A stretch of 64,000 nucleotides of DNA from Candidatus Babelota bacterium (GCA_018266085.1 JAFEAZ010000008.1:3278-67277); one strand, 5' to 3'. Numbered from the stretch's first letter, positions 4,894 through 53,404 are shown. Program-made: numbers and translations. The notes: generated from the letters alone by a model not told the origin.

Positions 4894-5946
4894 CTATTGA
4901 ATGGATCTTGTAGAAGGATTTTGAAATGTCATTCTTTTGTTGCTTTGTAAAAGAAGCGCAGCAAATCCGTGAGCTCCGCTGACAAAGTTATTTAATTGTT
5001 GATTTGTTCTGGTAGAGACATCTAGAAGTCGATCAAGCTTGCCATTAACATCATCGATCTTTCTGGCTTGCTCTGTTGCTACTGATTCCAGTGCAGCGGT
5101 TCTCACAAGGATTTTTTCCAAGACAGATCGAGATTGCTCATTTCTTCCTGCAATATCACTGACCTGCTTTTCTATACTTTGATTCCAAGTGCTAGTTGCT
5201 TTGTCTCGCAGTAATTGCAGTCTTTCTTGCTCTTTTTGTTTTGCTACAATGGTTGCAAGTGATGAGTTAGCGGTAGCGACACCACCGGCCAAGCCATTAA
5301 CTTGAAGTGCAAGCTCATTTACTGAATTCTGGGTTGCTCTGGTAGCAACATCTGTACCTACTGCACTAACGCGTGAGTTTACATCGCTAAACCCTTGGTC
5401 GACTGATGCTTGAGTAGCTCTGGTAGCAACATTTGCTGCGACAGAATCAAGTCTGTTGTTAGCGGCACCGACTTCCTGGCTTAGTTCATCAACCGATGCT
5501 TGAGAAGCTCTGGTATTAACAGCTTCACGTAATTGATTGTCTCTCAGTATGCGTGAACGTTCTCTGAAATAATCAATTCTTTGTTTTCTTCTGTTGCTCA
5601 TTATAAGACGAGTAGCGCAGAACGCAGCAGTAACAGTTGTTCCTATGGCAGTTATGGTCAGTACTGGATGTTGCAGGAAGAATTCCGCAGCAAAACCTCT
5701 ACCAGATTGCACTGTTGGCTGAGCTGGTTGCGGTGCTGGTTGTGAAGGGACAAGATACACAAGTTGTGGTTGGGTGCTTGGTTGTTGCAGAGTGCAAGCA
5801 TTTCCGGGTGGCAGCAAGAGACTGTTTGCAACAGCAGCGCCACTTGTTGCCGCTGTATCGACCGCTTGCAGCATCGGTGCTACGCACAGACAGCATGATA
5901 ACAACACAGTAGTTACATCTATCATTTTGTTGCGTCTAATTTTCAT
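4894..5946 (-). CDS. hypothetical membrane-anchored coiled-coil protein with about 27-aa tandem repeats
   Basis: Start moved to MKIRRNKMIDV (ATG 5946). Signal/TM, Pro/Gln-rich linker, second TM, then repeats NTRASQASVDELSQEV / VATRATQASVDQGFSDV / VATRATQNSVNELALQV. Confidence 0.6.
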   Translation of the reverse strand: MKIRRNKMIDVTTVLLSCCLCVAPMLQAVDTAATSGAAVANSLLLPPGNACTLQQPSTQPQLVYLVPSQPAPQPAQPTVQSGRGFAAEFFLQHPVLTITAIGTTVTAAFCATRLIMSNRRKQRIDYFRERSRILRDNQLREAVNTRASQASVDELSQEVGAANNRLDSVAANVATRATQASVDQGFSDVNSRVSAVGTDVATRATQNSVNELALQVNGLAGGVATANSSLATIVAKQKEQERLQLLRDKATSTWNQSIEKQVSDIAGRNEQSRSVLEKILVRTAALESVATEQARKIDDVNGKLDRLLDVSTRTNQQLNNFVSGAHGFAALLLQSNKRMTFQNPSTRSIQ

Positions 5947-6222
5947 GTGAGATCCTGCATAAATAAAAAAATAGATAAACGAATGGTCTAACATTTTGGT
6001 GTCGGTGTATCAGCTACTTGTGCTTAATGATACATGCAGTATCACGTGAATGTACAGAAAACATGCAGCAGCTGGCACGATTTTTAACAGCATAAAATTC
6101 ATACTGCAACTAAGTGTGACGTGAAAATAAATTAAGACAAGATATTGTGATGATAAAACACATCTAACAAGATGGTAAGAATGCGTTTTTCTCAATCTCG
6201 TCTTTTGTTGTTGTTGTGAGAT

Positions 6223-8660: not shown

Positions 8661-10048
8661 CCAATAGACCCTTCCATTTCATGGGCAATGAGCCGATTGA
8701 TTTCAACCGCATATTCCATGGGCAGCTCTTTGACAAAATCATTAATAAATCCATTAATAATGAGCGCGCGTGCAGCAGCTTGTGACAAACCACGACTGGC
8801 TAGATAGAGCATCTGTTCGTCACTGATTTTACTTAATGAGGCCTCATGTCCTACATCCACTGGGTGTTGTTCTATGGTTAGCGTAGGGTAGGTATCTGAA
8901 CGGGATGCTGCATCGAGCAGTAATGCATCACATTGAACACGAGCACGCACGTTACGCGCACCTTTGATAACTTTCAGCAGCCCGCGATAACTTGAGCGGC
9001 CACCATCTTTGCTGATCGATTTCGACAGGATGGTTGAGGTGGTGTTGGGAGCGCAATGAATCATTTTGCCGCCAGCATCTTGATGTTGCCCTTTGCCAGC
9101 AACGGCAATCGACAGAATATGGCCATGAGCACCAGGCTCTTTAAGAATAATGGCAGGGTATTTCATGGTGATTTTGCTGCCAAAATTGCCATCAATCCAT
9201 TCAACCGTTGCATTTTTGTAAGCAAGAGCCCGCTTGGTTACTAAGTTGTATACGTTGTTGGACCAGTTTTGAATGGTTGTGTAGCGCAGCCGCGACCCTG
9301 GGCGAGCGACCAACTCTACCACGGCGCTATGCAATGAATTTTTACGATACACAGGTGCGCTGCAGCCTTCGACATAATGCACGCTGCTGTTATCGTCGGC
9401 AATAATCAACGTGCGCTCAAACTGGCCCATCTGTGCAACGCTCATAGCAAAATATGCTTGTAGCGGCATCGTGACCTCGATTCCCTTGGGGATATAGATA
9501 AATGAGCCACCGCTCCATACTGCCGTATTGAGTGCTGCAAATTTATTGTCATGAGCGGGCACGATGGTGCCAAAATATTCTTTAAAAAGATCCGGATATT
9601 CAGATAACCCTTGCGTCATGTCACAGAAGATCACGCCAAGATCGGCCCATTTTTTACGCAGACTTTTGTAGATAACTTCCGACTCCATCTGTGCGCCAAC
9701 ACCGGCTAAAAACTGCCGTTCTGCTTGAGGTATGCCAAGCTTTTCGAAAGTAGTTTTAATGGTGGTAGGCACATCGTCCCATGAGGTCTGTTGTGCCGCG
9801 AGTGGTTTGACATAATAGAAAATGTCATAGGGGTCGAGCTGGCTCAGATCGGCACCCCAGGTAGGCATGGGCATCGCTTCAAAGCGGGCTAATGCTGCCA
9901 GGCGTATGTCGATCATCCAGTCCGGTTCATTTTTCTGCTCAGCAATCTGCAGTACAATTTTCCTGTTGAGCCCTTTTTGCGTGGCAAAATGGTAATCGCT
10001 TCGTTTCTGACGGGTATTCTTTTCAGCTGTTGTGGGTAAAGGCATCAT
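8657..10048 (-). CDS. sufB: Fe-S cluster assembly protein SufB
   Basis: Highly conserved SufB blocks (FIYIPKGIEVTMPLQAYF, HYVEGCSAP, GHEASLSKISDEQMLYLASRGL). Start is ambiguous (10048, 10045 or 10081). Confidence 0.9.
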   Translation of the reverse strand: MMPLPTTAEKNTRQKRSDYHFATQKGLNRKIVLQIAEQKNEPDWMIDIRLAALARFEAMPMPTWGADLSQLDPYDIFYYVKPLAAQQTSWDDVPTTIKTTFEKLGIPQAERQFLAGVGAQMESEVIYKSLRKKWADLGVIFCDMTQGLSEYPDLFKEYFGTIVPAHDNKFAALNTAVWSGGSFIYIPKGIEVTMPLQAYFAMSVAQMGQFERTLIIADDNSSVHYVEGCSAPVYRKNSLHSAVVELVARPGSRLRYTTIQNWSNNVYNLVTKRALAYKNATVEWIDGNFGSKITMKYPAIILKEPGAHGHILSIAVAGKGQHQDAGGKMIHCAPNTTSTILSKSISKDGGRSSYRGLLKVIKGARNVRARVQCDALLLDAASRSDTYPTLTIEQHPVDVGHEASLSKISDEQMLYLASRGLSQAAARALIINGFINDFVKELPMEYAVEINRLIAHEMEGSIG

Positions 10049-10808
10049 ACCCCTTATCTTTAAGAGTTGAGAGCAGGGCATAAGTGCCAGAATGGGTGAG
10101 TTTGCCGTCGGTCACTATATGTACCGCATCAGGGTTCAGTTGATCCAACAGTTGCGGGTTGTGAGTGATGACGACAATCGTTGTCGATGGGGCATCTGCT
10201 CTGAGTGCAGCGATACAGCGGGTAACCAGTTTTAAGGCATCAAGATCAAGACCTGAGTCGATCTCGTCAAGGATGATGCAGCGCGGTCGCAGTACGAGTA
10301 GCTGTAACAGTTCAAGCTTTTTCTTCTGCCCGCCCGAGAACCCTTCGTTGACGTTACGCTCACAAAAATTGGGGTCCATATCCAAAAAGAGCATCTGCGC
10401 TATGACATATTCTTTAAATGCCTGCACCGAACCTATCTGGTTGCCTTGTGCTTGGTAGGCTTCTTTGAGCAGCGTAAAGACGGGCACGCCGGGAAGTATA
10501 CAGGGGTTTTGAAAGGCGAGAAATATGCCTAACCGTGCGCGTTTGTCGGCAGAAAGCTCACGTAATGCTTGACCGTTGTAGGTTAATGATCCTGCCGTTA
10601 CGGTGCATGCAGGGTCACCCATGATGGTGCGGGCGAGGCTGCTTTTGCCTGAGCCATTTTTTCCCATCAGCAGATGTAAGGAGCCTGGTTGCAGGGTGAG
10701 CGAGAGATCGGTTACTACTGGCGCATCCTCAATGCTGACGCTGAGGTTGTCGATATGCAATATGTTGTCTCGAGTATTGTTGGGATATAACAAACCATTG
10801 TTAGCCAT
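10023..10808 (-). CDS. sufC: Fe-S cluster assembly ATPase SufC
   Basis: Walker A GKNGSGKS, signature FSGGQKKK, Walker B ILDEIDSGLD. ATG 10808 is preceded by GGAGAGGAGGAG. Confidence 0.9.
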   Translation of the reverse strand: MANNGLLYPNNTRDNILHIDNLSVSIEDAPVVTDLSLTLQPGSLHLLMGKNGSGKSSLARTIMGDPACTVTAGSLTYNGQALRELSADKRARLGIFLAFQNPCILPGVPVFTLLKEAYQAQGNQIGSVQAFKEYVIAQMLFLDMDPNFCERNVNEGFSGGQKKKLELLQLLVLRPRCIILDEIDSGLDLDALKLVTRCIAALRADAPSTTIVVITHNPQLLDQLNPDAVHIVTDGKLTHSGTYALLSTLKDKGYDAFTHNS

Positions 10809-10833
10809 ACAGAAGAATCTCCTCCTCTCCATC

Positions 10834-10862
10834 GTCATCCCTGCGTAGGCAGGGACCCATGG
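10834..10862. repeat. palindromic intergenic element, copy 3 (gtcatccctgcgtaggcagggacccatgg)
   Basis: Same architecture with a variant stem CCCTGC/GCAGGG. Lies upstream of sufC. Confidence 0.65.
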
Positions 10863-11100
10863 TTAATGTTTTTCAGAATTTTTGAGGATACGTCGGCCAT
10901 GTGCAAATCTTAATGAGCAATTAACTACAGAGCCTTTTTTAACGGTGTATCTTAGTAGATTTAGTATAAGCATTTTGGCAGTAAAAACCACTTTTTGCAC
11001 GCTTTATCTACAATTCTTGTTTTTCTTTTGATCATTCAGTTAGGATTATTGGCAGCAAGGTTTGGCTGAGCGTAAGCGCAAATAGACAAAGAGGGTGCAG

Positions 11101-11589
11101 ATGAAGCGTGCGATCTATTTTTTTGGCTCAGCACTATTCGTGAGTAGTCTGTCTGGGCGTTGTTCGCAACAGCAGGCTTATAAATCGGTCGCAGTGGTTG
11201 AAGAGAAGCTGGTCGTCTGCAAAACGGGCAGTAATACCGAACGTTGGTGTGTGGTGGCGGTCGAGTCACGCGATGGTCAGCCAACGTTGTATACGTATGG
11301 CAGCATAGTTGCGCGTTCTGGCAAAGCCTCTCGGCGTTTGCGCGTCCCGGTAGATGCAGAATTTTTTGTTTGCGTCGATGGCGGGTCCTATCAAAAGATC
11401 AACATTGCTACGTATTGCGCATCAAGAGGCTGTACTCGAGGTAAGAACCAATGCACTATACCTCATGGGCCTATAAAAATTTGGGATATTCAGCTGAACA
11501 TCGATGACGACAAACGCGTTACGATTGGGCCGAGAACTGATGGTTGTTTAGGATGTATACAACGTACAAGGAGTTGTTATGAAAATTAA
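11101..11589 (+). CDS. paralog-array protein 1 (secreted, Cys-rich, one module)
   Basis: Hydrophobic N-terminus MKRAIYFFGSALFVSSL. LVVCKTGSNTERWCVVAVESRDGQ...LRVPVDAEFFVCVDGG matches the module shared with array members 4-9. Confidence 0.7.
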   Translation: MKRAIYFFGSALFVSSLSGRCSQQQAYKSVAVVEEKLVVCKTGSNTERWCVVAVESRDGQPTLYTYGSIVARSGKASRRLRVPVDAEFFVCVDGGSYQKINIATYCASRGCTRGKNQCTIPHGPIKIWDIQLNIDDDKRVTIGPRTDGCLGCIQRTRSCYEN

Positions 11590-11977
11590 AGTATTGGCGG
11601 GAGTTATTCTGTTGTCGGCAGGCTTTGTGCCTGGGCTTCACTCAAAAAATATTAGGATAAAAGTTGTCAAAGAAGAACCTTCTGTAGCATTAGAATACGC
11701 CGTCGACACTGGTACGAATGATCCAAAGTGGCAATCACTCAAAAACAATGCGCAGATTAAGTACGACGACAATAAAACTATAAAAAAGCTCTATGTGAAG
11801 AGGCCTAGCGAGTCGGTTGGTTCGGCTAAGGTTTTGTTCTTGTTGGACGAGGCAGAACAAAAGAGACAGGGACACGATATTATTGTTGTTAACGAGATAG
11901 GGTTTCCCCGTTATTGGAAGCAAGAATACTTTAAAACCTCCCAAGAGAGCAAAGGTAAGAGCAGAAGTCGTCTGTAA
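11579..11977 (+). CDS. paralog-array protein 2 (small secreted)
   Basis: AAGGAG RBS. Signal peptide MKIKVLAGVILLSAGFVPGLHS. IRIKVVKEEP strand opening as in the other members. Overlaps protein 1 by 11 nt. Confidence 0.65.
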   Translation: MKIKVLAGVILLSAGFVPGLHSKNIRIKVVKEEPSVALEYAVDTGTNDPKWQSLKNNAQIKYDDNKTIKKLYVKRPSESVGSAKVLFLLDEAEQKRQGHDIIVVNEIGFPRYWKQEYFKTSQESKGKSRSRL

Positions 11978-12030
11978 AGTTCAATGATAGAGCAAATTGG
12001 TGCCTGCGTTAGCAATAAGGGGTACGTTGT

Positions 12031-12429
12031 ATGAAAATAATAACCGTTCGCTTACTCGCTATCGCCGCACTGTGCGTATGTGGTATACAGATCATCAGGC
12101 CGTATACAGTTGTTATCAAGCTGGTAGCAGAGGATGTGCGTGCGAATTTCTTGTATGCCATCGGCAGCATGGACGAAAACCTCTGCGATTTTCCTAATCC
12201 TATAGAGCTTACCTATAAAGTCATTAATGGTGGGGGTAAAGGTGTGCTCATAGCTTTTGACAATACCCTTATCAACTGGCTTTTTGTACGTGAATCGAAA
12301 GATGTCAAGCCATATCCGCGTTATGGCTTCAACTTAAAAAATACGCAAACACTTCAGATGGGTGGCTACAACTGTGTAGTGATTCGCCGTGATGGCACGA
12401 TTGGGTACGACATGGTTGAGAATTTGTAA
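12031..12429 (+). CDS. paralog-array protein 3 (small secreted)
   Basis: Signal peptide MKIITVRLLAIAALCVCGIQ is homologous to those of members 7 and 8. Beta-rich body. Confidence 0.65.
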   Translation: MKIITVRLLAIAALCVCGIQIIRPYTVVIKLVAEDVRANFLYAIGSMDENLCDFPNPIELTYKVINGGGKGVLIAFDNTLINWLFVRESKDVKPYPRYGFNLKNTQTLQMGGYNCVVIRRDGTIGYDMVENL

Positions 12430-12467
12430 AAGAGTTATGTATTTAAACAAGGTGAAGAAGATACCCT

Positions 12468-13286
12468 ATGAAACGTACCACTAGTTTTATAATCGTTGCT
12501 CTATTGAGTGTCAGTTGTGTGCAGGCTCTGTTGCCAGCCAAGCAGTCGGTTAAAGCATACAAAACCGGTCTTAAAAATGAGACATGGACTGTAGCCGTAT
12601 TTACTCAAGAGAATGATCCGACGCCCTTTTCGCAGACATCATTCAAAAGTACGAGCAGCATTTTGCCAGGCAGAGGGCTCTACTTTAATTTCGATGGCAA
12701 CAGTACCAACTATATCAAGGTGTACCCAGTCGATGCTACGAAGGCAAAAAGATGTCAAGGGCAAAACATGCACTACAGCTGCGGTCAGATTGAGACCTTG
12801 AAAATTACTGAAGAGCAAGCGCTGCCGGGTTCAGTTATTCGCATAGAGGTGACCAGTGCTGATGTGTACAGCATTAAAATCGATCCACCGAAGAAAGATA
12901 GCGTAGAGATTGCGGTAAAAAGAGACTGTGATATTGGTGAAGCATGTGAAGCTTCTTGGACCGTAACAATACATGACGAACAAGACAACCCTACCGGGTA
13001 TACTGCGCAGGTTGGAGATGATAAACCTGCAAAAATACGAGTGCCTGCGAATAAACTATTCTGGGTGCATGTAAAGGCCGGTTCTTCTGAGATAGGAAAC
13101 AAAAAGATTGAACCTACAAAAAAATTAACGAACAAAAATGTGCTGCTTGTTAGTAGTGGCATGGTAGCAGTAGCGACTCAAGGTGACAAGATTGATACAT
13201 TGTTTGATACGGTGAAGGCTGCTGCACCGAAAAAAAGAAAAAAACCTGTACAAGATAGAGAGTTTGAGCAGTTTGGCAGTCTTTAA
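12468..13286 (+). CDS. paralog-array protein 4 (secreted, two modules)
   Basis: Signal peptide ...VALLSVSCVQA. Module A: VKAYKTGLKNETWTVAVFTQENDP. Module B: ASWTVTIHDEQDNP...IRVPANKLFWVHVKAGS. Confidence 0.75.
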   Translation: MKRTTSFIIVALLSVSCVQALLPAKQSVKAYKTGLKNETWTVAVFTQENDPTPFSQTSFKSTSSILPGRGLYFNFDGNSTNYIKVYPVDATKAKRCQGQNMHYSCGQIETLKITEEQALPGSVIRIEVTSADVYSIKIDPPKKDSVEIAVKRDCDIGEACEASWTVTIHDEQDNPTGYTAQVGDDKPAKIRVPANKLFWVHVKAGSSEIGNKKIEPTKKLTNKNVLLVSSGMVAVATQGDKIDTLFDTVKAAAPKKRKKPVQDREFEQFGSL

Positions 13287-13309
13287 GCTATACATAAAAA
13301 GGAGATGGC

Positions 13310-14071
13310 ATGAAGAAGATGAAGAGAGTAGTTGCAGTGGGTGTGATGAGCATGGGCTTGGTGAATGCTGTGTATTGCGAGATACGCAAGCTGGTAGCAA
13401 CGAAAAACAGCGATACGTTTGGTTGGTCGGCGATACAGATCTGGCAAAACGGCAGCCAGGTATCGGCGGCAAAGTTTAAGAAAAGCACTGCATCTGATGC
13501 ACAATATCCACAGGGTCAGAGTAATAAATATCTCTTTTTTGATACAGACAAAGGTGGTGTTGAAGTTCGTTTCTATTGGACTGCTGATGCCTATGCATCT
13601 CCTGGTACAGGAGCCGCTGACGTACCTCTTTTTAAAAATACAACACTATACACTCAAAATGATTTGCCTTTTGGAACTACGATAAAGATTAACTGTCCTT
13701 CTGGTTATAATGGCACAGGAAGCTGCAAGATGGAGGCCGCTAAACCTACGATTAAGTATACGAAAGTAAAGGTCGTCAAGGCTGATAACCAGAATGTATT
13801 GTGGACGGTCAAAGCAGCATCGGGAAAATTGGCTAATCCCAACAAAAGTCAGACCTATGGAACGGTAAACATATTGAAAGAAACTGGGCTTACGAGCAGA
13901 TTGAAGGTTCCCAACAATAAAGATTTTTGGATAGTTGTGAGTTCTAATGATAAAAACGACAAGGTCTTTGTTGGTAACAAAACGGCCGAGATTACTGAAA
14001 TCAAGGCTGGCGCGATAAAGAGCGGTTCTGTGATCAATATTGATGGACAAGGCAAAGCGACTATAAAGTGA
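13310..14071 (+). CDS. paralog-array protein 5 (secreted, two modules)
   Basis: AAGGAG RBS and a signal peptide. Module B: VKVVKADNQNVLWTVKAASG...LKVPNNKDFWIVVSSND...VINIDGQGKATIK. Confidence 0.75.
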   Translation: MKKMKRVVAVGVMSMGLVNAVYCEIRKLVATKNSDTFGWSAIQIWQNGSQVSAAKFKKSTASDAQYPQGQSNKYLFFDTDKGGVEVRFYWTADAYASPGTGAADVPLFKNTTLYTQNDLPFGTTIKINCPSGYNGTGSCKMEAAKPTIKYTKVKVVKADNQNVLWTVKAASGKLANPNKSQTYGTVNILKETGLTSRLKVPNNKDFWIVVSSNDKNDKVFVGNKTAEITEIKAGAIKSGSVINIDGQGKATIK

Positions 14072-14115
14072 ATTTAGAATGTCAGAATAAACGTTTATAA
14101 AAAAAGGAGAATGGT

Positions 14116-14496
14116 ATGAAATTTCTCAATAAAATAATGCTGCTGAGTGCGGGGTTTGTCTGTGCAGCGCAAGCAAATGAAATCAGCATAACAAATACCT
14201 TGTCACAAGAAATGCCGGTTACTGTTACCTTCGCGGTGAGCAAAACTGCAAAAGCAACAAGACCAGCTAAAAAGAGAATACTGTATAACCAAACAGCTTC
14301 TTTCGACCAGCCCATTGACAAAGATTGGGTAACGATTACGGTGTATCACGCTGGTGGGTATAAAACCGTTAAGATCCAGCGGTCATTTAGTCTCAAAAAC
14401 CCTCTTTTTGACAATAGCAGAGCAATTACCATTGAAGGTGTAAGTAGCACACCTACCTTGTGGCTTAATGGCAAAGAGCTTGAGGCAGTACGCTAA
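14116..14496 (+). CDS. paralog-array protein 6 (small secreted)
   Basis: AAGGAG RBS. Signal peptide MKFLNKIMLLSAGFVCAAQA. Beta-rich, 126 aa. Confidence 0.65.
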   Translation: MKFLNKIMLLSAGFVCAAQANEISITNTLSQEMPVTVTFAVSKTAKATRPAKKRILYNQTASFDQPIDKDWVTITVYHAGGYKTVKIQRSFSLKNPLFDNSRAITIEGVSSTPTLWLNGKELEAVR

Positions 14497-14526
14497 AGAG
14501 GCTGAGTAAATAGAAAAGGTAACAGT

Positions 14527-15276
14527 ATGAAGATAATGACACGAATAGTGACCATTGCTGCGTTGTGCGTCGGGGTTGCGCCGATGGTAACGGCGGTCAC
14601 GGTTAAAGTTTTCAAAAATGACCCAGCTACCTGGAGCAAGCCTTGGACTTACCAATTGAGAACACAAAAAGATGCAGGACAAGAGAGCACTATGCAGGGT
14701 CCGTTGACCTCCGCAGGCGTTGCTTCTGAAGTGGCCGTTACCAGAGGAGCATCGACTGTTATGACAGCACAACCAAAAAGGTTTACAAAGACTGTCAACC
14801 TATCAGTTGATCCAGGCAAGCATAAGACTATTTTACGTGTGTATCCTAACACTACTCAAATAGAAAATACTGGTTCAGACTTGCTGTTAAAAGAAGGGAA
14901 TGATGAGCCATTTAAAGGTAAGGCGGTTCTAGCCGACACGAATGGCAAGCTCTCATTCGTAGATCTAGATATTGCTCTTGCCCCAACGCACAAAGTGCCG
15001 GTTGAAAAAGAAGTAAAAGGTCCCTTGTGGACAATAACTGCAAAAGAAGTTGCGAGTGGTCCTAATAATGGTTTTGTCTATGGCGAAGTAAAAATAAAGA
15101 AAGATACCAGCTTTGGCAAAGATCTTGTGGTTCCTACGAATAAAGACTTTATTTTGTATGTAAAAGGACCCGGTTTGTCGGCAGCTAGTCAGTTCTTATT
15201 CAGCGGTGACAACGTAAATAGGCTTCAAAAAATCACAATCGACAAAGGCGGAAAGATCGTGCCGGTACTAAAATAG
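14527..15276 (+). CDS. paralog-array protein 7 (secreted, two modules)
   Basis: VTVKVFKNDPATWSKPWTYQLRTQ (module A). PLWTITAKEVASG...LVVPTNKDFILYVKGPG...ITIDKGGKIVPV (module B). Confidence 0.75.
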   Translation: MKIMTRIVTIAALCVGVAPMVTAVTVKVFKNDPATWSKPWTYQLRTQKDAGQESTMQGPLTSAGVASEVAVTRGASTVMTAQPKRFTKTVNLSVDPGKHKTILRVYPNTTQIENTGSDLLLKEGNDEPFKGKAVLADTNGKLSFVDLDIALAPTHKVPVEKEVKGPLWTITAKEVASGPNNGFVYGEVKIKKDTSFGKDLVVPTNKDFILYVKGPGLSAASQFLFSGDNVNRLQKITIDKGGKIVPVLK

Positions 15277-15296
15277 TGAAGAACTCGTAAAAACAT

Positions 15297-15364
15297 GCCC
15301 TACCACTGTATGCATAAACCCCATACATCCGGTAGGGCTCTTTCATGCCATGCCGCAGGCATGG
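15297..15364 (+). terminator. two stem-loops in the only long spacer of the array (possible terminator or transcript boundary)
   Basis: gccctacc(15297-15304)/ggtagggc(15331-15338), with inner tgtatg/cataca, followed by TCTTTC. Then ccatgcc-gca-ggcatgg (15348-15364). Confidence 0.4.
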
Positions 15365-15471
15365 AACATCGTATGTCATGCTACAGACACAACTCTTGTT
15401 TTGTCGCAACCCAACCGGCTAGAGTTGGTTGCGGCGATACTGTATGACGCTATAAAAAAGAGGTAGAGAGT

Positions 15472-16392
15472 ATGAAGGTAAGATCGAGAATGGTAGTGGT
15501 TGCTGCGTTGTGCATAAGCTGTGTGCAGGTGACGCAGCCAAAAAAGGTGAGCTTAAAGCTCTATAAAACTGATCCGACAACCTGGAACAAGCCTTTTTAT
15601 TATGTGATACAAACTGCAGCAACTGACGTTAGCCAAAGCGTAGGGCTGCCTCCTAGAAAAGATGGCAAGCCGCGCATGTTACAGACGCGGTTAGAAAGGA
15701 CACCGGCAAGAACGGTGACGACTAGCCATTCACTGGCAGCTTATAAACCGATAAAAAAAGATGTGACGATATCCTTTGATGATGAAGATGAAAACATCCT
15801 ATTTATCAACGAAAAACAGGATGGCAAGGGCAAAGGTGGCTCTTTGGTGCTGTCTGACCCTGATGGTAAACATGCAGGCAAACCTGCTTACACGACAGGG
15901 CATGTTATTGCAATAGGAGCCGGAGAAGGTGCCGAAGATATCTACAAACCAACAAGCATGTTGAAGGTAGGCGTAAGCGAGATCATAAAAGAGCGACAAG
16001 GTAAATTTTTTAAGATCCCGGTATATAAAGAAGATCCGGATACATGGGGGCAGAAGTGGACCATCACCTTGGTTGATGGGCAAGGGAGAGAATACCCTGA
16101 TGCTAAAGTAGATATTTACAAAGATTCTACTTTCAAAAAACTGTGGATTGCAAAAGATATAGAGCCAGGCAGTACGTATGTTGAGGTACGTAAGCCTAAG
16201 GCCCCTACCTTGGTAGATACGCCGTTGCAAAATAACCCTGGTGTTTCTTGGGAGCAGGGATTGTTGGTTATTGATGAAGATGGGCATGGGCGCATCGAGA
16301 ATAAGTCATTTATGCAGAGTGCGCCCAAGAAAAAAGCAAACAAAACAGTTCGAGCTGCTGAGAATCAGAAGTCAGAAGCAGAGCTCTTTTGA
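15472..16392 (+). CDS. paralog-array protein 8 (secreted, two modules)
   Basis: VSLKLYKTDPTTWNKPFYYVIQT (module A). IPVYKEDPDTWGQKWTITLVDGQG...LLVIDEDGHGRIEN (module B). Confidence 0.75.
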   Translation: MKVRSRMVVVAALCISCVQVTQPKKVSLKLYKTDPTTWNKPFYYVIQTAATDVSQSVGLPPRKDGKPRMLQTRLERTPARTVTTSHSLAAYKPIKKDVTISFDDEDENILFINEKQDGKGKGGSLVLSDPDGKHAGKPAYTTGHVIAIGAGEGAEDIYKPTSMLKVGVSEIIKERQGKFFKIPVYKEDPDTWGQKWTITLVDGQGREYPDAKVDIYKDSTFKKLWIAKDIEPGSTYVEVRKPKAPTLVDTPLQNNPGVSWEQGLLVIDEDGHGRIENKSFMQSAPKKKANKTVRAAENQKSEAELF

Positions 16393-16438
16393 CTCTATGT
16401 CCAATGAGCGTTGGTTTACAGAAAAAAGGACATAAAAT

Positions 16439-17695
16439 ATGAAAAAGATGTTGTGTTTAGTGAGACTGTCGGTTATCAGTTGCAGCATTGTATGCAGCGT
16501 GCGCGCAGCAACCGTTACGGTAAAGCTTTTAAAAACTGACCAAGGCACGTGGGACAGGCAGTTCGCCTATTTCATTTCGACGCGAACCAGTGAAAAAAAG
16601 AGCAAGATTGGAGTGGGGCCACTTGTTATCAGAGAGGCAACGTTAGAGATGCCGACAAAATATTCGGCCGAAAAATTTATAAGAAAAGATGGCAAAGTAA
16701 CTTTTGAAAGAGAAAGTGAAGACACCGTACTTTATGTCTGTACAAAGCTTAATGTGAGAGAACCTGAAAAAGCGCTAGATGTTTGTAAATCGCTTAGTTT
16801 AAATGATTTTGCGACTCGTGGCACTAGCTCTAATTTGGTCGTTGGCATCGACAAAAATGGTGTTCCATCGGTAATGACGCAGGCTGAAGCGAATAAAAAA
16901 ATTGCCGATAGTGGAAAACCACCAATGCATGCTGTAAAGGTGAGAAAAGTCGGTAATAATACTGCTGCATGGACCGTTAAGGTGATACGCTCTGACGATG
17001 GCGTACCAGCACCGGATGTTATTTTAAGTCGAATTACCATAAAAAGAAATTCTTCATTCAAGTTAGACTCGTTAAAAGTTCCAAGGAACAGAGAATTTTT
17101 TATTACGGTCAATGACGAAGCGCCACAAAAATTTAAGAACATTGCTGTCGATGCAGTGTTGAACATTAATGATGATCGCATTGTGGAAATCGGTGGCATG
17201 ACGGCAGCAGTGCTTGCGGCGCAAGAAGAAGAGCGTAAAAAGAAAAAGGCAGAGCATGATGCACAAGTTGCTCAAGCAAAAGAGAAACAAGATAAAGCAA
17301 AAGAAGAAAAACGGGCGAAAGAAGAAGCGCTTTTAGAAAAAAAAGTCCGTTTTGCTCAAGCAAATCTCATAAGAGCTCAATCAAAAAAACTCTCTGATCA
17401 TGACCAAGCCGATGCCTTGGAACTATTGGCAAATCATAAACGCGACAGCGGAGATACAGAGGGTGAAAGTCGTGTTCGCCCCGCAATAGATACTATAGAA
17501 GCGCGCAAAAAGCTTACCAAAGAAGACAAAGAAGTTGCACTTAATTTACTGCTCGAGCAGAGAGAAATACAACTCGAAACGGCTCAGTTGAATTTGCAGC
17601 GGGCACAAGTCTCTGCTCGTATACACTTACCAGGTGAATCAGGAGCAGCTTTGACACCACCGACGGGTGCAAAAGAAGTACATGTTAAGCGATAA
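16439..17695 (+). CDS. paralog-array protein 9 (secreted, two modules plus a Lys/Glu-rich coiled-coil tail)
   Basis: VTVKLLKTDQGTWDRQFAYFIST (module A). VKVRKVGNNTAAWTVKVIRSDDG...LKVPRNREFFITVNDE...LNINDDRIVEIGG (module B). The C-terminal ~170 aa read AAQEEERKKKKAEHDAQVAQAKEKQDKAKEEKRAKEE... Confidence 0.75.
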   Translation: MKKMLCLVRLSVISCSIVCSVRAATVTVKLLKTDQGTWDRQFAYFISTRTSEKKSKIGVGPLVIREATLEMPTKYSAEKFIRKDGKVTFERESEDTVLYVCTKLNVREPEKALDVCKSLSLNDFATRGTSSNLVVGIDKNGVPSVMTQAEANKKIADSGKPPMHAVKVRKVGNNTAAWTVKVIRSDDGVPAPDVILSRITIKRNSSFKLDSLKVPRNREFFITVNDEAPQKFKNIAVDAVLNINDDRIVEIGGMTAAVLAAQEEERKKKKAEHDAQVAQAKEKQDKAKEEKRAKEEALLEKKVRFAQANLIRAQSKKLSDHDQADALELLANHKRDSGDTEGESRVRPAIDTIEARKKLTKEDKEVALNLLLEQREIQLETAQLNLQRAQVSARIHLPGESGAALTPPTGAKEVHVKR

Positions 17696-17803: not shown

Positions 17804-19540
17804 CTATTTCACAAACTGATCTTCATACAGTCGCACAATCTCATCACTGGTGGTCGCCTCGCCAGGCCCTTTGTCAGGCCTGTAATCAACAAAGCGAGGA
17901 AAGCGCAATGCATAGCCAAGTGTCGTGTCGGTACTGCCCGCCTTATGCGTTGGCGATTGCGTAATCTCTTCGGCAAGAATGCTCACCACCAGCTCAGGAG
18001 CTACCCACACATCGGGGTAGAGTTGTGGTGCACACGCAACATTCTTTGGTTGTTGCTGCACAGCAAGGCTATCACAGCGCCTGCGCAGTTCTATCCAATC
18101 AGCATCCTTAAGTCCAGTCCCAACCTTTGCTAGTGTCTGAAACGAGTCATCATGCTTGTTGTAAACGCCAACCAGAAAGGCGCCAATGCCAAAGGCAGCA
18201 CGTTTGCCAGAACCGGCATAGTAGCCAAGCACGACAGCATCGATGGAATCTTCCAGTTGCCCCATTTCATGCCGCTTGAGCTTGATCCAATTAAAATTAC
18301 GCTTACCCGCTTGGTAAGGAGCATGCGGGCGCTTGACCACAAGCCCTTCAAGACCTGCTGCAATGCAACTCAAAAAATAGCTTTCTAAAGCCTGTACATT
18401 CTCTATAGGCTTTTCTTCAATGACACGCATCGCTGAGGATCGATCACCGACCAGATCCAACAATAATGCGCGACGTTGCTCATGACCGGTTGACAACAGA
18501 TCTTGGCCGTTTAAGTACAGAAGATCGAAAAAGATTATTTGGAGTGGAAATTCTGCTGCTTTGGCTTCAATATCATGCTTGCGTCGACGTTTCATAGTTT
18601 CTTGAAACGGCAAAAATGATTGGGTGTTTGGGTCATAGGCTATTGTTTCACCCTCTGCAATAAAGCTCTGTTTGCCCAGCTTCACAATCTCCTGCACGAG
18701 GTCAGGAAACATTGCCGACATATCGGTCAAATGGCGAGAGAAGAAATGAATTTTCGGTGTGGGGCCGGTTGCATCATAATGAATCTGCAAGCGAAAACCA
18801 TCAATTTTTGGTTGCGCAACACACCTGCCCATCTTGTCGATAATTGCCTGTGCGCTTGGCAACCGCTCTGCGCCAGCAGGTCTGATGGGTGATCCGATTC
18901 GTATCGCCACATGCTGTATAGCATCAATACCAGATTCTTTCAGCAAGCGCGCGGTATAACCAATATCAGCGCAGAGATTGTAAGCCGATTCGATGGTCTC
19001 GTGTAATGATTTGTTGCCACAGATCATCCATGACAATGCATCGATAATGGTCATATCAGAAAAGCCGAGTCGCAGCTTGCCGATAATGATACGTACAATG
19101 AATTTTGCCGATACTGGATCTACTTGACGCAGTAACGCGACTGTCTTATTCCGTTTCTCTTCATGGGAGCCACTGCCGGAAATCTCTTCAAGCGCGCATA
19201 GGTTACCATACACCTGCGCAACGGTCAGCTCTTGCGTTGTCCGATCGGCATACTGCTCAATCACAAGCCCCAGATCTCCCAATTTTTTTGCTTGCTGCGT
19301 AACAGTGTCGACATTTTGTTGCGCAATATCGGCAACAATATGGGTCATCAACGTTTCTGCCAGCGTAAATTGGGTACCAATAAAGGGTGGGTGCAGTTGC
19401 CCTAACGCAAGATTGCATATGATGTCGGCTTCGTTGGCAGATGCTTGGCTCAAGAGTTGCGCAAGCAAACGCGTCATATCAAGGCGGCCCGGTGTAGATT
19501 CTATCTGTTGAAAATAGTCGCTTACTACTGAAAAATTCAC
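17804..19540 (-). CDS. lig: ATP-dependent DNA ligase, Lig1/archaeal-type three-domain architecture
   Basis: Motif I KIDGFRLQIH, motif III FIAEGETIAYD, motif IV EGLVVKRP, motif V NWIKLK. An N-terminal DNA-binding domain of about 230 aa. GTG start with an AAGGAT RBS. Confidence 0.85.
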   Translation of the reverse strand: MNFSVVSDYFQQIESTPGRLDMTRLLAQLLSQASANEADIICNLALGQLHPPFIGTQFTLAETLMTHIVADIAQQNVDTVTQQAKKLGDLGLVIEQYADRTTQELTVAQVYGNLCALEEISGSGSHEEKRNKTVALLRQVDPVSAKFIVRIIIGKLRLGFSDMTIIDALSWMICGNKSLHETIESAYNLCADIGYTARLLKESGIDAIQHVAIRIGSPIRPAGAERLPSAQAIIDKMGRCVAQPKIDGFRLQIHYDATGPTPKIHFFSRHLTDMSAMFPDLVQEIVKLGKQSFIAEGETIAYDPNTQSFLPFQETMKRRRKHDIEAKAAEFPLQIIFFDLLYLNGQDLLSTGHEQRRALLLDLVGDRSSAMRVIEEKPIENVQALESYFLSCIAAGLEGLVVKRPHAPYQAGKRNFNWIKLKRHEMGQLEDSIDAVVLGYYAGSGKRAAFGIGAFLVGVYNKHDDSFQTLAKVGTGLKDADWIELRRRCDSLAVQQQPKNVACAPQLYPDVWVAPELVVSILAEEITQSPTHKAGSTDTTLGYALRFPRFVDYRPDKGPGEATTSDEIVRLYEDQFVK

Positions 19541-24526: not shown

Positions 24527-25735
24527 TTATTCCTTAGAAGTCCAGAAACTACGTATCCATTGATAGACAGAGTCCCATGCGCTTGAGAGCCAGCTGAACA
24601 TGCCATGATCGCTATTAGCTTCAGCGTTAGCAGGCTCCGGCTGCTCAGTATTTTCAAGAGCACAGCTTTTGGTGCGTAGCGTTTCTACCTGTTTTTTGAC
24701 ATCAACACCATGCTCTTTCAGCGTGGCAAGCGCGATCATCACCGCATCAATATGCTCTTTTGTTTTGTTGGTGAGCGTCGTGAAATAGGTGGCAAAATCA
24801 GCTTTAATGTACTGCTCTATGGTGATAATATTTTCAAAAGAGGTGCGCATCTGATGGTACGATTCTTTGGCTTGTTTGTCGCTGAGCTCCCGTTCTATTT
24901 CGCGCAGCTGCTGGCTAGCCTGTTGTTCATAGGTTGAGCAGAGCGCAACTTGATGATTAAGCATTTTGAGCGCTTCATCAAAAAGGAGTGCTAATTTGTC
25001 TATTGCCTGAGACTCTGTTTGCAGCTGATCAAGCTGCTCTTTTTCTTTTTCGAGTGCAGCAAAAGCCGCACGCTCTTGCTCATTTAATTCACCAACTCTT
25101 TTACGTTGCTCTTCTAGCTCCGTTTTGAGCATGGTAAGTGCTGCAGCAAGTTCGCCTTGTTCATAACCACTTTTTCGGTAAAAATCGGCAAAAGTGGTCA
25201 TAAGGATGCTGCTGTAACGTTCGGCAAAAGCGTCGCGCTCCGCATCCACTATTTTTACACGATTGATGATTTCATCATACAGCTTGCGCGCACGCTCCCA
25301 CCAATGGCGTTTGAAAAGCCAGTTTCCTTTTGTTTCCCCTTTAACGTCCATGGTGTCAATCCCTGCTGCCGCATCCTCTGTTTGCTCCTGCACGACTGCT
25401 GTTGCAGCAGGCTGAGTTGCTGGTGGGGTTGCACTTAGTGATGCAGTGCTGGATTCTGCCACCGGTGGTGTAGGTAAGGCAGGAAATGATGCAATGGTCG
25501 CCGTCGCTGTCTCTGGTATCGTGATAGGGATAGTTGCTGAAATAAGTGGCCTTTCATCGGCCTGAGGCATGCTTGTTACGGGGGTAGCAGCCTGCACGTG
25601 TTGAGAATTTGAACCAGGCGGGAGCATTAATGTATGGCTTTGGTCGGTAGAGAATTGACCCATGCTGGTAGAGCCGGTCAACATTGATACCATACCGATT
25701 CCTAATTTCAAATGGTTACGGCACATGCAGGACAC
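24527..25735 (-). CDS. hypothetical secreted protein: Pro/Ala/Thr-rich region plus long coiled coil
   Basis: Low-complexity N-terminal third (PATQPAATAVVQEQ), heptad-rich central part, Trp-rich C-terminus (FSWLSSAWDSVYQWIRSFW). Confidence 0.55.
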   Translation of the reverse strand: MSCMCRNHLKLGIGMVSMLTGSTSMGQFSTDQSHTLMLPPGSNSQHVQAATPVTSMPQADERPLISATIPITIPETATATIASFPALPTPPVAESSTASLSATPPATQPAATAVVQEQTEDAAAGIDTMDVKGETKGNWLFKRHWWERARKLYDEIINRVKIVDAERDAFAERYSSILMTTFADFYRKSGYEQGELAAALTMLKTELEEQRKRVGELNEQERAAFAALEKEKEQLDQLQTESQAIDKLALLFDEALKMLNHQVALCSTYEQQASQQLREIERELSDKQAKESYHQMRTSFENIITIEQYIKADFATYFTTLTNKTKEHIDAVMIALATLKEHGVDVKKQVETLRTKSCALENTEQPEPANAEANSDHGMFSWLSSAWDSVYQWIRSFWTSKE

Positions 25736-28623: not shown

Positions 28624-29772
28624 TTACTTGAGCCTCTTTTTTGTGTGTATAGCCATTTCATATACCGCGATTAGGTCTTGTGCATGTGTTTCAAGTGTGT
28701 AGTTGTTTGCTGTTGTGCGTGCGCCACGAGATAGTTTTTCTAGCAGCTGTTCGTCATGAGTGAGTCGCTCTATTGCTGCAGCCATCTCATGCACCGTCTC
28801 AACAATATACCCATTGTAACCATTGTTGATGATAGAGCGCTGGCCAGGCCCATCAAGAGCGATAACCGGCGTGCCGGATGCCATTGCTTCTGCAAGCACT
28901 AACCCTTGCGTATCGCTCGATGAAGGGAAAAGAAAAAGATCGGCCTGCCGATACCAAGCAACCAAGCTCGCCTGATCAGCTTTGTGATGAAACCGCACAT
29001 GCGCGGGATTTAACCCAAGTGTGTCATACGCATAGGTTTGTATCTCATGCCAAAGCTGTCCGTACCCAACAGCATCAAGTTCATAGCTGCCATGCGGCAG
29101 CAGCGCGACGGCCTCAAGCATTGCAGGCATATTTTTTTCGCGGACAAATCTGCCCACATACAAAAGTTTGCGTGGTTGTGTGGTGGTACTCAATGCTTTT
29201 TCTGGCGTAAAAAAACAGGAGCGTATAGGGCTTGCGACGATCGATATCGGAGTCTCTGTTTGATCTGTATTGATCGCCTGCGCAACCGCCTGACTTGGTG
29301 CAATAATATGATCAACCTGCGCGTAATAGGTACGCAAGCGTTGCGTAATCAAGAAGGAGGTAATCTTGTGTGGTAATGGCACATAATGTGTGTAGGCATG
29401 GTAGAGCGTATGATGTGTAAAGACCACGGGGCAATCGCGCATGCGGGCTATTTTAAGCGCTGCGTGACCCAGTAACCACGGATGATGAGCATGTATGATA
29501 TCCGGTTGCACCGTTTCTATGAGCTCTTTCAAGTATGCGTGCGTGCGCCATGGCACCGCAATCGGATTGTTCTTAAATTCCATGGGCAATACGGTTGGCA
29601 GGCGGTGTACATAGTCAGGATCTTGATCGGCACCTGCAATATTGAGCGTGACGATCTTCACGTTGTAACCGCATGCAAGCAATGCTTGTGTTGAGGCATG
29701 TACCGATTGGGCAACGCCACCTTGATACGGGAAATAGTTGTTGGTGACCATGAGTACTGTGCGCGGCGTCAT
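28624..29772 (-). CDS. glycosyltransferase family 4
   Basis: MTPRTVLMVTNNYFPYQGGVAQSV N-terminus. C-terminal ...FLFPSSSDTQGLVLAEAMASGTPVIA (E-x7-E region). Confidence 0.8.
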   Translation of the reverse strand: MTPRTVLMVTNNYFPYQGGVAQSVHASTQALLACGYNVKIVTLNIAGADQDPDYVHRLPTVLPMEFKNNPIAVPWRTHAYLKELIETVQPDIIHAHHPWLLGHAALKIARMRDCPVVFTHHTLYHAYTHYVPLPHKITSFLITQRLRTYYAQVDHIIAPSQAVAQAINTDQTETPISIVASPIRSCFFTPEKALSTTTQPRKLLYVGRFVREKNMPAMLEAVALLPHGSYELDAVGYGQLWHEIQTYAYDTLGLNPAHVRFHHKADQASLVAWYRQADLFLFPSSSDTQGLVLAEAMASGTPVIALDGPGQRSIINNGYNGYIVETVHEMAAAIERLTHDEQLLEKLSRGARTTANNYTLETHAQDLIAVYEMAIHTKKRLK

Positions 29773-29776
29773 CCTT

Positions 29777-30805: not shown

Positions 30806-30963
30806 GTACGATCTTAATTTCTTTTGAAAATGGTGAGAATTACTATGCGATAGGCACAATAATACTGAAAGAATGGTGTACGTGCAAAAAAGAGATACGT
30901 GTGTGTGAATGCTTTGCGCTCATCAGTCTATTGGCGCGGACAATGCGTGATACAGTGTGAGCA

Positions 30964-53384: not shown

Positions 53385-53404
53385 TTGAGCACCTATTCCT
53401 CTTT

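Follow-up and report, generated by a model that had tools for sequence, protein, structure and literature searches.

A tandem array of nine exported-protein genes with divergent alleles in a Dependentiae genome

The array and its genomic setting

In a MAG from an uncultured member of the Dependentiae (TM6/Babeliales), nine ORFs follow one another on the plus strand at positions 11101-17695 of the window, by which is meant the whole 64,000-nt stretch of DNA that was analysed, between sufC and a gene for an ATP-dependent DNA ligase. The row of consecutive ORFs described in an earlier note on this DNA proved real in the ORF map, with products of 126-418 aa, and the Shine-Dalgarno sequence claimed for each gene was found as a purine-rich, SD-like stretch 5-10 nt 5' of all nine. 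Intergenic gaps range from -11 to 53 nt, with the exception of 195 nt between g7 and g8. The features of the locus are:

10839-11100, no strand assigned: divergent intergenic region between sufC (minus strand) and g1 (plus strand), the presumed promoter region of the array
11101-11589, plus strand: g1, 162 aa (alternative GTG start at 11095); signal peptide, a single C-type module (residues 36-96) and a Cys-rich C-terminal part (10 Cys)
11579-11977, plus strand: g2, 132 aa, overlapping g1 by 11 nt; signal peptide and probably a single N-type module
12031-12429, plus strand: g3, 132 aa; membership in the module family unproven
12468-13286, plus strand: g4, 272 aa; signal peptide, N-terminal hairpin motif, C-type module and Lys-rich tail ending REFEQFGSL
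13310-14071, plus strand: g5, 253 aa (allele A); two modules, dimorphic gene
14116-14496, plus strand: g6, 126 aa; signal-peptide protein
14527-15276, plus strand: g7, 249 aa; signal peptide, N-type module (24-104) and C-type module (156-218)
15472-16392, plus strand: g8, 306 aa; signal peptide, modules at residues 26-111 and 182-242, Lys-rich tail ending SEAELF
16439-17695, plus strand: g9, 418 aa; signal peptide, two beta-sandwich modules (24 to ~255) and charged helical tail
17222-17695, plus strand: tail of g9, ~155 residues rich in Lys, Glu, Ala and Gln, ending in the motif HLPxxSGAA

The intergenic region 5' of g1 is 100% identical among strains of the same species, and no sigma-70-like site was found above chance within it. 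At the other end of the array, the HLPxxSGAA terminus of the g9 tail also occurs in some orthologues; against Pfam and NCBIfam the tail, a low-complexity stretch, gave chance-level matches only, none near a curated cut-off. It is probably helical or coiled-coil, judging from a helix that starts where the AF2 model ends.

The Dependentiae are a widespread and almost wholly uncultured phylum whose members are known to live as obligate parasites within the cells of protists; close to half of the proteins predicted for them are exported ORFans to which no role has been assigned. Assignment of the window to this phylum is in keeping with the relatives of the flanking ligase and with proteins identical to g3 and g5, which are annotated as coming from "Candidatus Dependentiae bacterium". 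Many records of the ligase relatives bear generic labels only, and all those with a named taxon are MAGs of Dependentiae, Babeliales or TM6. In the one well-studied Dependentiae genome, that of Chromulinavorax destructans, signal peptides have been reported on 44% of CDS, with an enrichment in ORFans among these, and both secreted ORFans and outer-membrane vesicles have been described (PMC6561590).

All nine products of the array carry 2-4 Lys or Arg within their first 8 residues and, by a crude heuristic, one N-terminal hydrophobic segment with no later TM-like segment, which bears out the signal peptides read earlier. DNA repeats common to paralogues are confined to signal-peptide coding 5' ends, in g5, g7 and g8 and in g4 and g8 (families D1 and D3), where the proposed relatedness of the signal peptides is upheld at the DNA level for g4, g5, g7 and g8. 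The proteins are rich in Lys as had been judged by eye (10.5%, vs 4.6% in 22 other genes of the window) and basic in net charge in all nine cases; the supposed richness in A/T is present and slight (GC 0.42-0.45 vs 0.48-0.53 in the suf flank; GC3 0.413 vs 0.449). When the first 35 residues were searched with the lipobox pattern [LVI][ASTVI][GAS]C, a weak match (VISC) was found in g9 and no canonical lipobox in the other eight. Neither the array nor 20 other ORFs of the window that were scanned yielded an outer-membrane anchor, an autotransporter barrel or secretion machinery.

A module family and its predicted fold

A module of ~65-100 aa is common to g1, g4, g5, g7, g8 and g9, often occurring twice per protein. 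Membership was established with iterated HMMs on the mature parts, with 222 reversed or shuffled sequences as decoys; these HMMs recover the six proteins, and 0/222 decoys at E<=1e-3. Profile-profile comparison (hhalign) links the recovered groups at 90-99% probability, with g1 reaching 98.8% against the family profile. The module HMM opens with VKVxKxDxxxW..WT and carries YGxVxIxKDT..LxVPxNxxF in its core, and its best-conserved parts are the N-terminal strand and the C-terminal hairpin. The earlier note had described nine paralogues with a common motif; this stands for the six of nine that the iterated HMMs recover, and by profile comparison g2 is a probable further member, matching the N-type module (profile A2) at 79% and E 1.6e-5 in hhalign. 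It is unproven for g3, whose weak link to the family runs via g2 (26 bits pairwise; ~1% in hhalign), and for g6, which has no tie to the family profile (~1% in hhalign) and shares only the signal peptide and, as judged by eye, the C-terminal hairpin motif.

The module belongs to no named domain, as had been suspected, and searches of Pfam, NCBIfam, PHROGs and PADLOC, of the PDB by profile and of structures with Foldseek gave no convincing match. In Pfam and NCBIfam none of the nine proteins came at or near a curated cut-off, the few chance-level matches lying at E 0.002-0.9 and the best curated-family score being that of g3 against a PetP-like family (18 bits, cut-off 25); PHROGs and PADLOC gave 0 matches for the nine proteins, and the family profile gave 0 matches among PDB sequences at E<=10. 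Among 1.84 billion representative proteins a profile search returned 32 matches, 1 of them spurious, and g3 is represented by only 7 clusters among 5.8 billion proteins. The module family is previously undescribed and occurs almost nowhere else.

An AF2 model of g9 residues 24-264 is confident (pLDDT 89.8, pTM 0.80) and predicts two tandem beta-sandwiches. In Foldseek its top match is a streptococcal ancillary pilin, 4oq1 (E 3.9e-4, probability 0.98, query TM 0.26, rmsd 13 Angstrom), followed by other two-domain pilins and adhesins: the major pilin Spy0128, T-antigens, Mfa3 as a tip pilin of type V, and BACOVA/Bacteroides FimA-like "cell adhesion" proteins. The pilin matches lie at TM 0.19-0.26 and E 4e-4 to 1e-2, and no match exceeds a query TM of 0.31; likeness to pilins and adhesins is weak, and the predicted fold is generic. 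Single modules superpose locally on transthyretin-like, TssJ and CBM41-type sandwiches (TMt 0.43-0.58 over ~90-140 residues), a generic fold resemblance only, with sequence identity of 8-16%.

Divergence and allele replacement among strains

The position of the array is kept in related species, where the number of genes varies (9 or 10) and g4 is triplicated in one case (L090). Orthologues are 33-92% identical in the array vs 91-99% in the flanking genes, and dN/dS is 0.15-0.63 vs 0.01-0.10, in agreement with the earlier description of a locally expanded, diverging family. The ORFs persist across five versions of the array, which together with these dN/dS values marks them as real, selected genes. 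The most conserved of them is g3 (90-92% aa between species), while orthologues of g6 are kept in all arrays at 37-83% aa. The g7 of the window is closer to that of another species (88%) than to that of L003, a strain of its own species (81%). Wherever divergence between a pair is measurable, dN/dS is <1, the sole ratio >1, that of g4 between the window and L003, resting on a dN of 0.008 and a dS of 0.006. Relaxed constraint could therefore explain part of the divergence, and since dN/dS is <1 it is the allele pattern by which diversifying or balancing selection is indicated.

This pattern was seen by comparing contigs of the same species from 14 sequencing runs and one NCBI MAG, which are 99-100% identical throughout with the exception of g5; variants of g7 also exist (L003, L002), as does a 6-nt indel at 13225-13230 in g4. 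Between the window and L003 there are 550 differences, of which 521 fall in two blocks:

13393-14014, plus strand: variable block 1, the mature-protein part of g5, with 311 of the 550 differences
14597-15607, plus strand: variable block 2, comprising g7, the g7-g8 spacer and the first ~45 codons of g8, with 210 of the 550 differences and 38-95% identity to L003

The alleles of g5 are discrete, where A (253 aa) and B (274 aa) have 63% nt identity in a background that is otherwise identical, and the g5 block is replaced in L003 and likewise in L092, L094, L096 and L097. The two alleles do not differ in the 28-aa signal peptide or in the last 19 aa, and the dS between them (0.67) exceeds that of the flanks between species (0.40-0.56). 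Directly 3' of the replaced g5, g6 is 100% identical across strains. Chimerism of strains within the contigs is conceivable in principle, against which it can be held that each allele recurs at 100% identity in several independent runs. The array evolves by the birth and death of genes and also by homologous recombination that replaces whole alleles, its breakpoints lying in the conserved 5' ends for the signal peptide and in the conserved 3' ends, and at least two very different versions of g5 and several of g7 circulate within one species. No sample contained both allele A and allele B, and selection that balances them within a population is therefore to be regarded as a possibility only.

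Possible functions of the array products

Two very different versions of g5 in otherwise identical strains suggest proteins that are exposed to a host or the environment, and their circulation together with several versions of g7 is the pattern expected for proteins seen by a host, predator or phage. A surface or host-interaction function is accordingly suggested, and the reading preferred here, tentatively, is that the products may well be Sec-exported, strongly basic surface proteins of a lineage-specific family, each with one or two beta-sandwich modules ~100 residues long, facing host or environment and evolving by gene birth and death and recombinational allele replacement. In this scheme the operon-like array would be transcribed as a unit from the sufC-g1 intergenic region, its products would cross the inner membrane by means of their N-terminal signal peptides and reach the surface of the cell envelope or the outside, and the Lys-rich beta-sandwich modules would form an adhesin- or coat-like set that binds ligands of the host or the environment, in which the charged helical tail of g9 may serve as a stalk or oligomerisation element. 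The existence of such an array is made less surprising by the share of signal-peptide CDS, and their enrichment in ORFans, in C. destructans (PMC6561590).

An unlikely but still serious alternative is that the products are periplasmic, unexposed proteins with an envelope-structural or ligand-binding role, whose divergence reflects relaxed constraint and hitch-hiking recombination. This would fit the finding of Sec signals only, without an evident path through the outer membrane, dN/dS <1 in all pairs with measurable divergence, the good conservation of g3, and the likeness of single domains to transthyretin-like folds and to TssJ, a periplasmic lipoprotein. However, relaxed constraint leaves unexplained both the existence of two discrete alleles, each 100% conserved and 37% apart with identical ends, and an allele dS above the species-level dS.

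It is rather improbable that the array encodes subunits of an extracellular fibre or pilus, where paralogous two-domain beta-sandwiches (stalk, minor and tip) polymerise and g5 is the exposed major or tip subunit. A dimorphic pilus subunit of this kind would have parallels in the fimA genotypes of Porphyromonas and the T-antigen types of group A streptococci. The best Foldseek matches are pilins, and the arrangement of the genes recalls operons that encode several paralogous subunits; conservation is highest in the N-terminal strand and C-terminal hairpin, but this strand also opens the internal second module, which makes it a feature of the domain rather than a donor strand. Like type V pilins (FimA/Mfa), the array would combine two tandem beta-sandwiches, multi-subunit paralogous operons and deeply divergent allelic types of an exposed subunit; the matches to these (Mfa3 5nf4, BACOVA_04078 3up6) are weak (E 1.6e-3 to 1.3e-2, TM 0.20-0.24), there is no Pfam FimA/Mfa match, eight of the nine proteins lack a canonical lipoprotein signal, and the phylum is another. 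With the sortase pilins of Gram-positive bacteria (4oq1, Spy0128 3b2m, T-antigens), which give the best match, it would share tandem Ig-like sandwiches and antigenic variability; unlike them it is without LPXTG sorting signal or C-terminal TM segment, in an envelope of the Gram-negative type (PMC6561590), and no sortase occurs among the scanned ORFs of the window. The nine-gene array, without a Pfam pilin match, likewise includes no usher, chaperone or PF00419-type subunit of chaperone-usher fimbriae, nor does an usher or chaperone occur among the scanned ORFs.

Less probable again is a role as soluble effectors released into the host cell, for instance via outer-membrane vesicles, which with a large secretome have been described in Dependentiae (PMC6561590), where Lys-rich tails would act as host targeting signals. 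The tail of g4 (PKKRKKP) does resemble a classical nuclear localisation signal, and that of g8 is Lys-rich too; yet the string in g4 is not kept, reading APTKKDFGQH in L001 and L006 and AEKRKK in L003, no effector-type domains were found, and the modelled arrays of beta-sandwiches are closer in appearance to modules for binding or structure. Very improbable, and largely refuted, are a conflict system (polymorphic toxin-immunity or other) and a locus made hypervariable by a diversity-generating retroelement: hypervariability is confined to defined blocks and small genes stand among larger ones, but g6 is invariant beside the replaced g5 and so is no co-varying immunity gene, PADLOC, PHROGs and Pfam toxin domains gave 0 matches, and a retroelement target was rejected because the substitution spectrum in the blocks is unbiased with many indels, not adenine-directed, and neither a template repeat nor a reverse transcriptase was found.

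Tandem or multicopy families of variable surface proteins are well known in host-associated bacteria, among them Chlamydia Pmp, Anaplasma Msp2/P44, the paralogous lipoproteins of Borrelia and Mycoplasma Vlp/Vsp. On the preferred reading of exported surface proteins, the array resembles these in its clustered paralogues with conserved signal-peptide-encoding 5' ends, fast divergence, gene gain and loss, and strain-level allele replacement in the reduced genome of an intracellular organism. It differs in having no sequence or domain similarity to them (Pfam, NCBIfam), no autotransporter barrel, no canonical lipobox in eight of nine proteins and no silent-cassette or phase-variation repeats, and its variation is seen between strains, within-clone variation not being demonstrable. 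The advance lies in the family and in one more example, both new, and not in the principle: a family of exported proteins whose fold model is confident and whose place in the genome is fixed, and a clear population signal where one gene has discrete, deeply divergent alleles in a near-clonal background, which makes g5 and g7 candidate host-recognition or antigenic determinants. More speculatively, and with low probability, the array could build a hitherto undescribed surface structure (fibre or coat) of a Dependentiae genus, in which divergent alleles of g5 and g7 are held by frequency-dependent selection from a protist host or predator; these two genes would then be determinants of host range or serotype in an uncultured intracellular parasite, within a fold family that has no described relatives.

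Layout and export signals of the array

The ORF map places nine successive plus-strand ORFs (g1-g9) between sufC and an ATP-dependent DNA ligase, and it has been shown that these array genes are real and under selection.

Genes of the array and its flanks (window positions, strand, description)
10023-10838, minus: sufC, array flank
11101-11589, plus: g1, 162 aa
11579-11977, plus: g2, 132 aa
12031-12429, plus: g3, 132 aa
12468-13286, plus: g4, 272 aa
13310-14071, plus: g5, 253 aa
14116-14496, plus: g6, 126 aa
14527-15276, plus: g7, 249 aa
15472-16392, plus: g8, 306 aa
16439-17695, plus: g9, 418 aa
17804-19540, minus: ATP-dependent DNA ligase, the other flank; 578 aa, Lig1-type (N/M/C domain)

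The spacing is operon-like, with an 11-nt overlap of g1 and g2 and remaining gaps of 23-53 nt, except for the 195 nt between g7 and g8. A purine-rich, Shine-Dalgarno-like stretch lies upstream of all nine start codons, so that the earlier note's claim of nine plus-strand ORFs, each with its own Shine-Dalgarno sequence, is borne out. A promoter and terminator scan of the array found nothing exceeding shuffled expectation. The Lys enrichment seen by eye is real (10.5% in array proteins versus 4.6% in 22 other window genes), and all nine proteins have a basic net charge; the supposed A/T-richness amounts to a mild shift and is not marked (GC3 0.413 versus 0.449).

The array proteins have been shown to carry Sec-type N-termini. 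By a simple hydropathy and charge check, a heuristic, all nine have 2-4 Lys/Arg within the first eight residues and a single N-terminal hydrophobic segment, with no further membrane-spanning window in any of them. By the same heuristic, AXA-like cleavage sites are plausible in g2, g4, g5, g6, g7 and g9, and g9 alone of the nine matches a canonical lipobox, weakly.

Distribution and divergence between species

The phyletic range of the module family encoded here has been shown to be narrow. Among 5.8 billion proteins, g7 has four 90%-identity clusters, g3 seven and g5 six, and a search of 1.84 billion representatives with the family profile matched 32 proteins, one of them spurious; P0031 (1958 aa) was rejected as a distant relative, since it is a eukaryotic Tudor/FH1 protein and the match lay in low-complexity sequence. 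About 11 of the remaining matches belong to the arrays retrieved in this analysis, most others share just 25-54% identity with an array gene, and at least one is a solitary, dispersed gene in a relative with 36% GC (L008). There, it directly follows a pair of genes that is syntenic with the window (51069-54439, minus strand; L008:12462-16507; ~51-55% amino-acid identity), namely a 771-aa Peripla_BP_6 protein and an upstream 344-aa gene; in the window, that place holds an alcohol-dehydrogenase gene on the opposite strand.

The ligase (17804-19540, minus strand), used as a taxonomic anchor, is conserved in no fewer than 80 species genomes with identities of 52-93%; the named ones are Dependentiae or Babeliales. 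When GTDB species genomes were scanned with the ligase, only one came close, with 93% identity; it is the L001 MAG, that of the sister species. All other matches reached 62% at most; wherever a record names a taxon it is a Dependentiae, Babeliales or TM6 MAG (Vermiphilus pyriformis among them), many records having generic labels only. The ligase-adjacent array is restricted to this genus-level group, and its presence in other Dependentiae was rejected, as it is missing at 79 other species loci.

Database entries that match g3 and g5 exactly carry the annotation '[Candidatus Dependentiae bacterium]' and locus tags JST99_. The MAG L002 (GCA_020850675.1) is labelled 'Epsilonproteobacteria bacterium', yet is 99.55% identical to the window, and its label therefore looks wrong. 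The same appears to hold for L010, L012 and other MAGs titled 'Epsilonproteobacteria bacterium' or 'uncultured Pseudomonadota bacterium', which carry the locus or the ligase and group with Dependentiae.

Those Dependentiae that have been cultured live inside protists as obligate parasites. In C. destructans signal peptides are found on 44% of CDS and are enriched in ORFans, with outer-membrane vesicles also seen (PMC6561590). Exported ORFans are the norm in this phylum, and the locus is of a familiar kind: a family of secreted paralogues, clustered and variable, in a bacterium that depends on a host. ORFans are also frequent in the genome outside the array: Pfam at E<=1e-5 gave no match for ORFs at 38834-40801 (655 aa), 24527-25735 (402 aa), 4894-5994 (366 aa) and 53405-54439 (344 aa), all on the minus strand.

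Five versions of the array occupy one and the same genomic site, and the locus has been shown to evolve by birth-and-death together with recombinational allele replacement.

Versions of the array
Window: 9 genes
L003 (conspecific strain): 9 genes
L001/L010: 10 genes
L005-L007: 10 genes
L090 (74% ligase identity): three g4-like genes and gX, without g7

The extra family gene gX lies between g5 and g6 (L001:8698-9294, whose copy includes a stretch of X residues from Ns in the assembly; L006:3411-4208; L090:4046-4759) and is absent from the window. A mobile island is unlikely, given the identical site in the relative with 74% ligase identity and the small compositional shift; neither an integrase nor an adjacent tRNA was found at the array. 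In the sister species, a 97-aa GIY-YIG domain gene, perhaps inserted at the array edge in the manner of a homing endonuclease, lies between sufC and g1 (L001:4823-5116); it is missing from window 10839-11100 and from conspecific strains.

Between the window and L001, amino-acid identity is 91-99% in the flanks and runs from 92% (g3) down to 33% (g9) in the array, while dN/dS is 0.01-0.10 in the flanks and 0.15-0.63 in the array, in keeping with the divergence proposed earlier. Synonymous divergence is also raised, from a flank dS of 0.40-0.56 to 0.87-1.6 in g5, g8 and g9, which means that these alleles predate the species split or were imported. On the leading reading, slightly less likely than not, the array products would be exposed on the cell or released and would bind host or environmental ligands, with g5 and g7 under frequency-dependent or diversifying pressure. 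It is unlikely that they are unexposed periplasmic proteins under relaxed constraint.

The module family and its tandem beta-sandwich fold

The array proteins have been shown to form a new module family. All-against-all BLASTP gave weak links among them; iterating HMMs from each half of g7 led to one and the same module, with VKVxKxDxxTW..WT at its start and YGxVxIxKDTSF..LxVPxNKDFxxxV as its core, and against 222 reversed or shuffled decoys these HMMs gave zero matches at E<=1e-3. They find one copy in g1, two each in g7 and g8, a C-type (second) module plus an N-terminal hairpin in g4, and a C-type module alone in g5, while each half of g9 is matched by one of the two HMMs; two modules in g4, g5 and g9 are backed by full-length alignments and the g9 model. 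When orthologue groups are compared as profiles, g1, g4, g5, g7, g8, g9 and gX are linked at 90-99% probability, and g2 aligns to the N-type (first) module of the 37-sequence family profile (79% probability, E 1.6e-5). Against that profile g3 and g6 reach only ~1%, and profile-profile, family-profile and pairwise attempts to tie them to the module failed; g3 has a weak likeness to g2 (26 bits), and by eye a C-terminal hairpin, h-x-I-x-I-D-x-x-G-x-h-x-h, ends all nine proteins. Membership is certain for six (g1, g4, g5, g7, g8, g9), probable for g2 and unproven for g3 and g6, so the idea of nine paralogues stands for the first six, probably for g2, and not for the last two. The duplications are old, since DNA similarity between paralogues is confined to the signal-peptide coding 5' ends.

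That the module is unlike any named domain, as first supposed, was upheld: Pfam, NCBIfam, PHROGs and PADLOC assigned no family to the array proteins, the family profile had no matches in a PDB sequence-profile search, and assignment to a known family was rejected on these empty results. A first AF2 model, of g7 from an 8-sequence alignment, was of low quality (pLDDT 63; uninformative Foldseek matches), whereas g9 residues 24-264 with the 37-sequence alignment gave pLDDT 89.8 and pTM 0.80; the deeper alignment mended the model and still yielded no family. In this predicted structure, a short helix joins two beta-sandwiches. Foldseek against the PDB never exceeded a query TM of 0.31, and a BFVD structure search gave nothing useful. 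The best-ranked Foldseek matches are mostly pilins and adhesins of two domains: 4oq1 leads at E 3.9e-4, followed by Spy0128, T-antigens, Mfa3 and FimA-like proteins of Bacteroides. At the level of one domain there is a likeness to the HGSNAT luminal domain, TssJ and CBM41, among others. On these weak matches, with nothing useful from BFVD and no match in the PDB profile search, the fold is a generic tandem beta-sandwich to which no family is assignable; the protein family is undescribed, and its structural placement is not possible. Pilus-like fibre subunits, which the best-ranked matches would recall at low TM, are quite improbable.

The last 20-25 residues of g4- and g8-type proteins (13215-13283 and 16320-16389) form a disordered AP-Lys-rich linker and then a short acidic/aromatic end (REFEQFGSL and SEAELF in the g4/g8 tails, REIYGEF in the relative P0025), which may serve in docking or sorting. 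Soluble host-targeted effectors are very doubtful; the NLS-like tail of g4 was rejected as a targeting signal, its string not being conserved among orthologues.

Variation of g5 and g7 within the species

The window and L003 were compared over 9.8 kb; of the 550 positions at which they differ, 521 fall in two blocks.

Variable blocks
13393-14014: block 1, mature part of g5
14597-15607: block 2, g7, spacer and start of g8

In contigs of 14 sequencing runs and one NCBI MAG, genes from sufS to the ABC transporter are 99.4-100% identical to the window, with the exception of g5, which occurs as allele A (253 aa, 100% identical, carried by the window) or as allele B (274 aa). The two share 62-63.5% nucleotide and 60% amino-acid identity, and each is invariant across runs. 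Both begin with the same 28-residue signal peptide and end in the same 19 residues, which places the exchange points within these conserved ends. The g7 variants are 80.8% (L003) and 93.5% (L002) identical to that of the window, whose g7 is nearer to that of the sister species than to that of L003. This discrete g5 dimorphism on a clonal background is what merits follow-up.

A conflict or DGR system is extremely improbable as an account of such localized change: DGR-type hypermutation is excluded by an unbiased block substitution spectrum with many indels, and g6, adjoining the replaced g5, is invariant across strains, which argues against toxin-immunity co-variation. Gene conversion between paralogues was likewise rejected as the allele source, as the paralogues share no long DNA repeats and the best matches of allele B are g5 orthologues (50-60% identity).

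The 195-nt g7-g8 spacer (15277-15471), the sole long gap of the array, lies inside block 2 with 73% identity to L003; it could be the site of an internal promoter or terminator, and the consensus scan found none there. Many independent metagenome contigs (L002, L004, L096-L100) start or stop at g5 or g7 (window equivalents ~13286-14600), which fits strain polymorphism disrupting assemblies at the variable blocks. Elsewhere in the window (28624-30859, minus strand), a GT4 glycosyltransferase adjoins an MprF-like protein with a phosphatidylglycerol lysyltransferase C-terminal domain, a pair that suggests envelope lipid modification.
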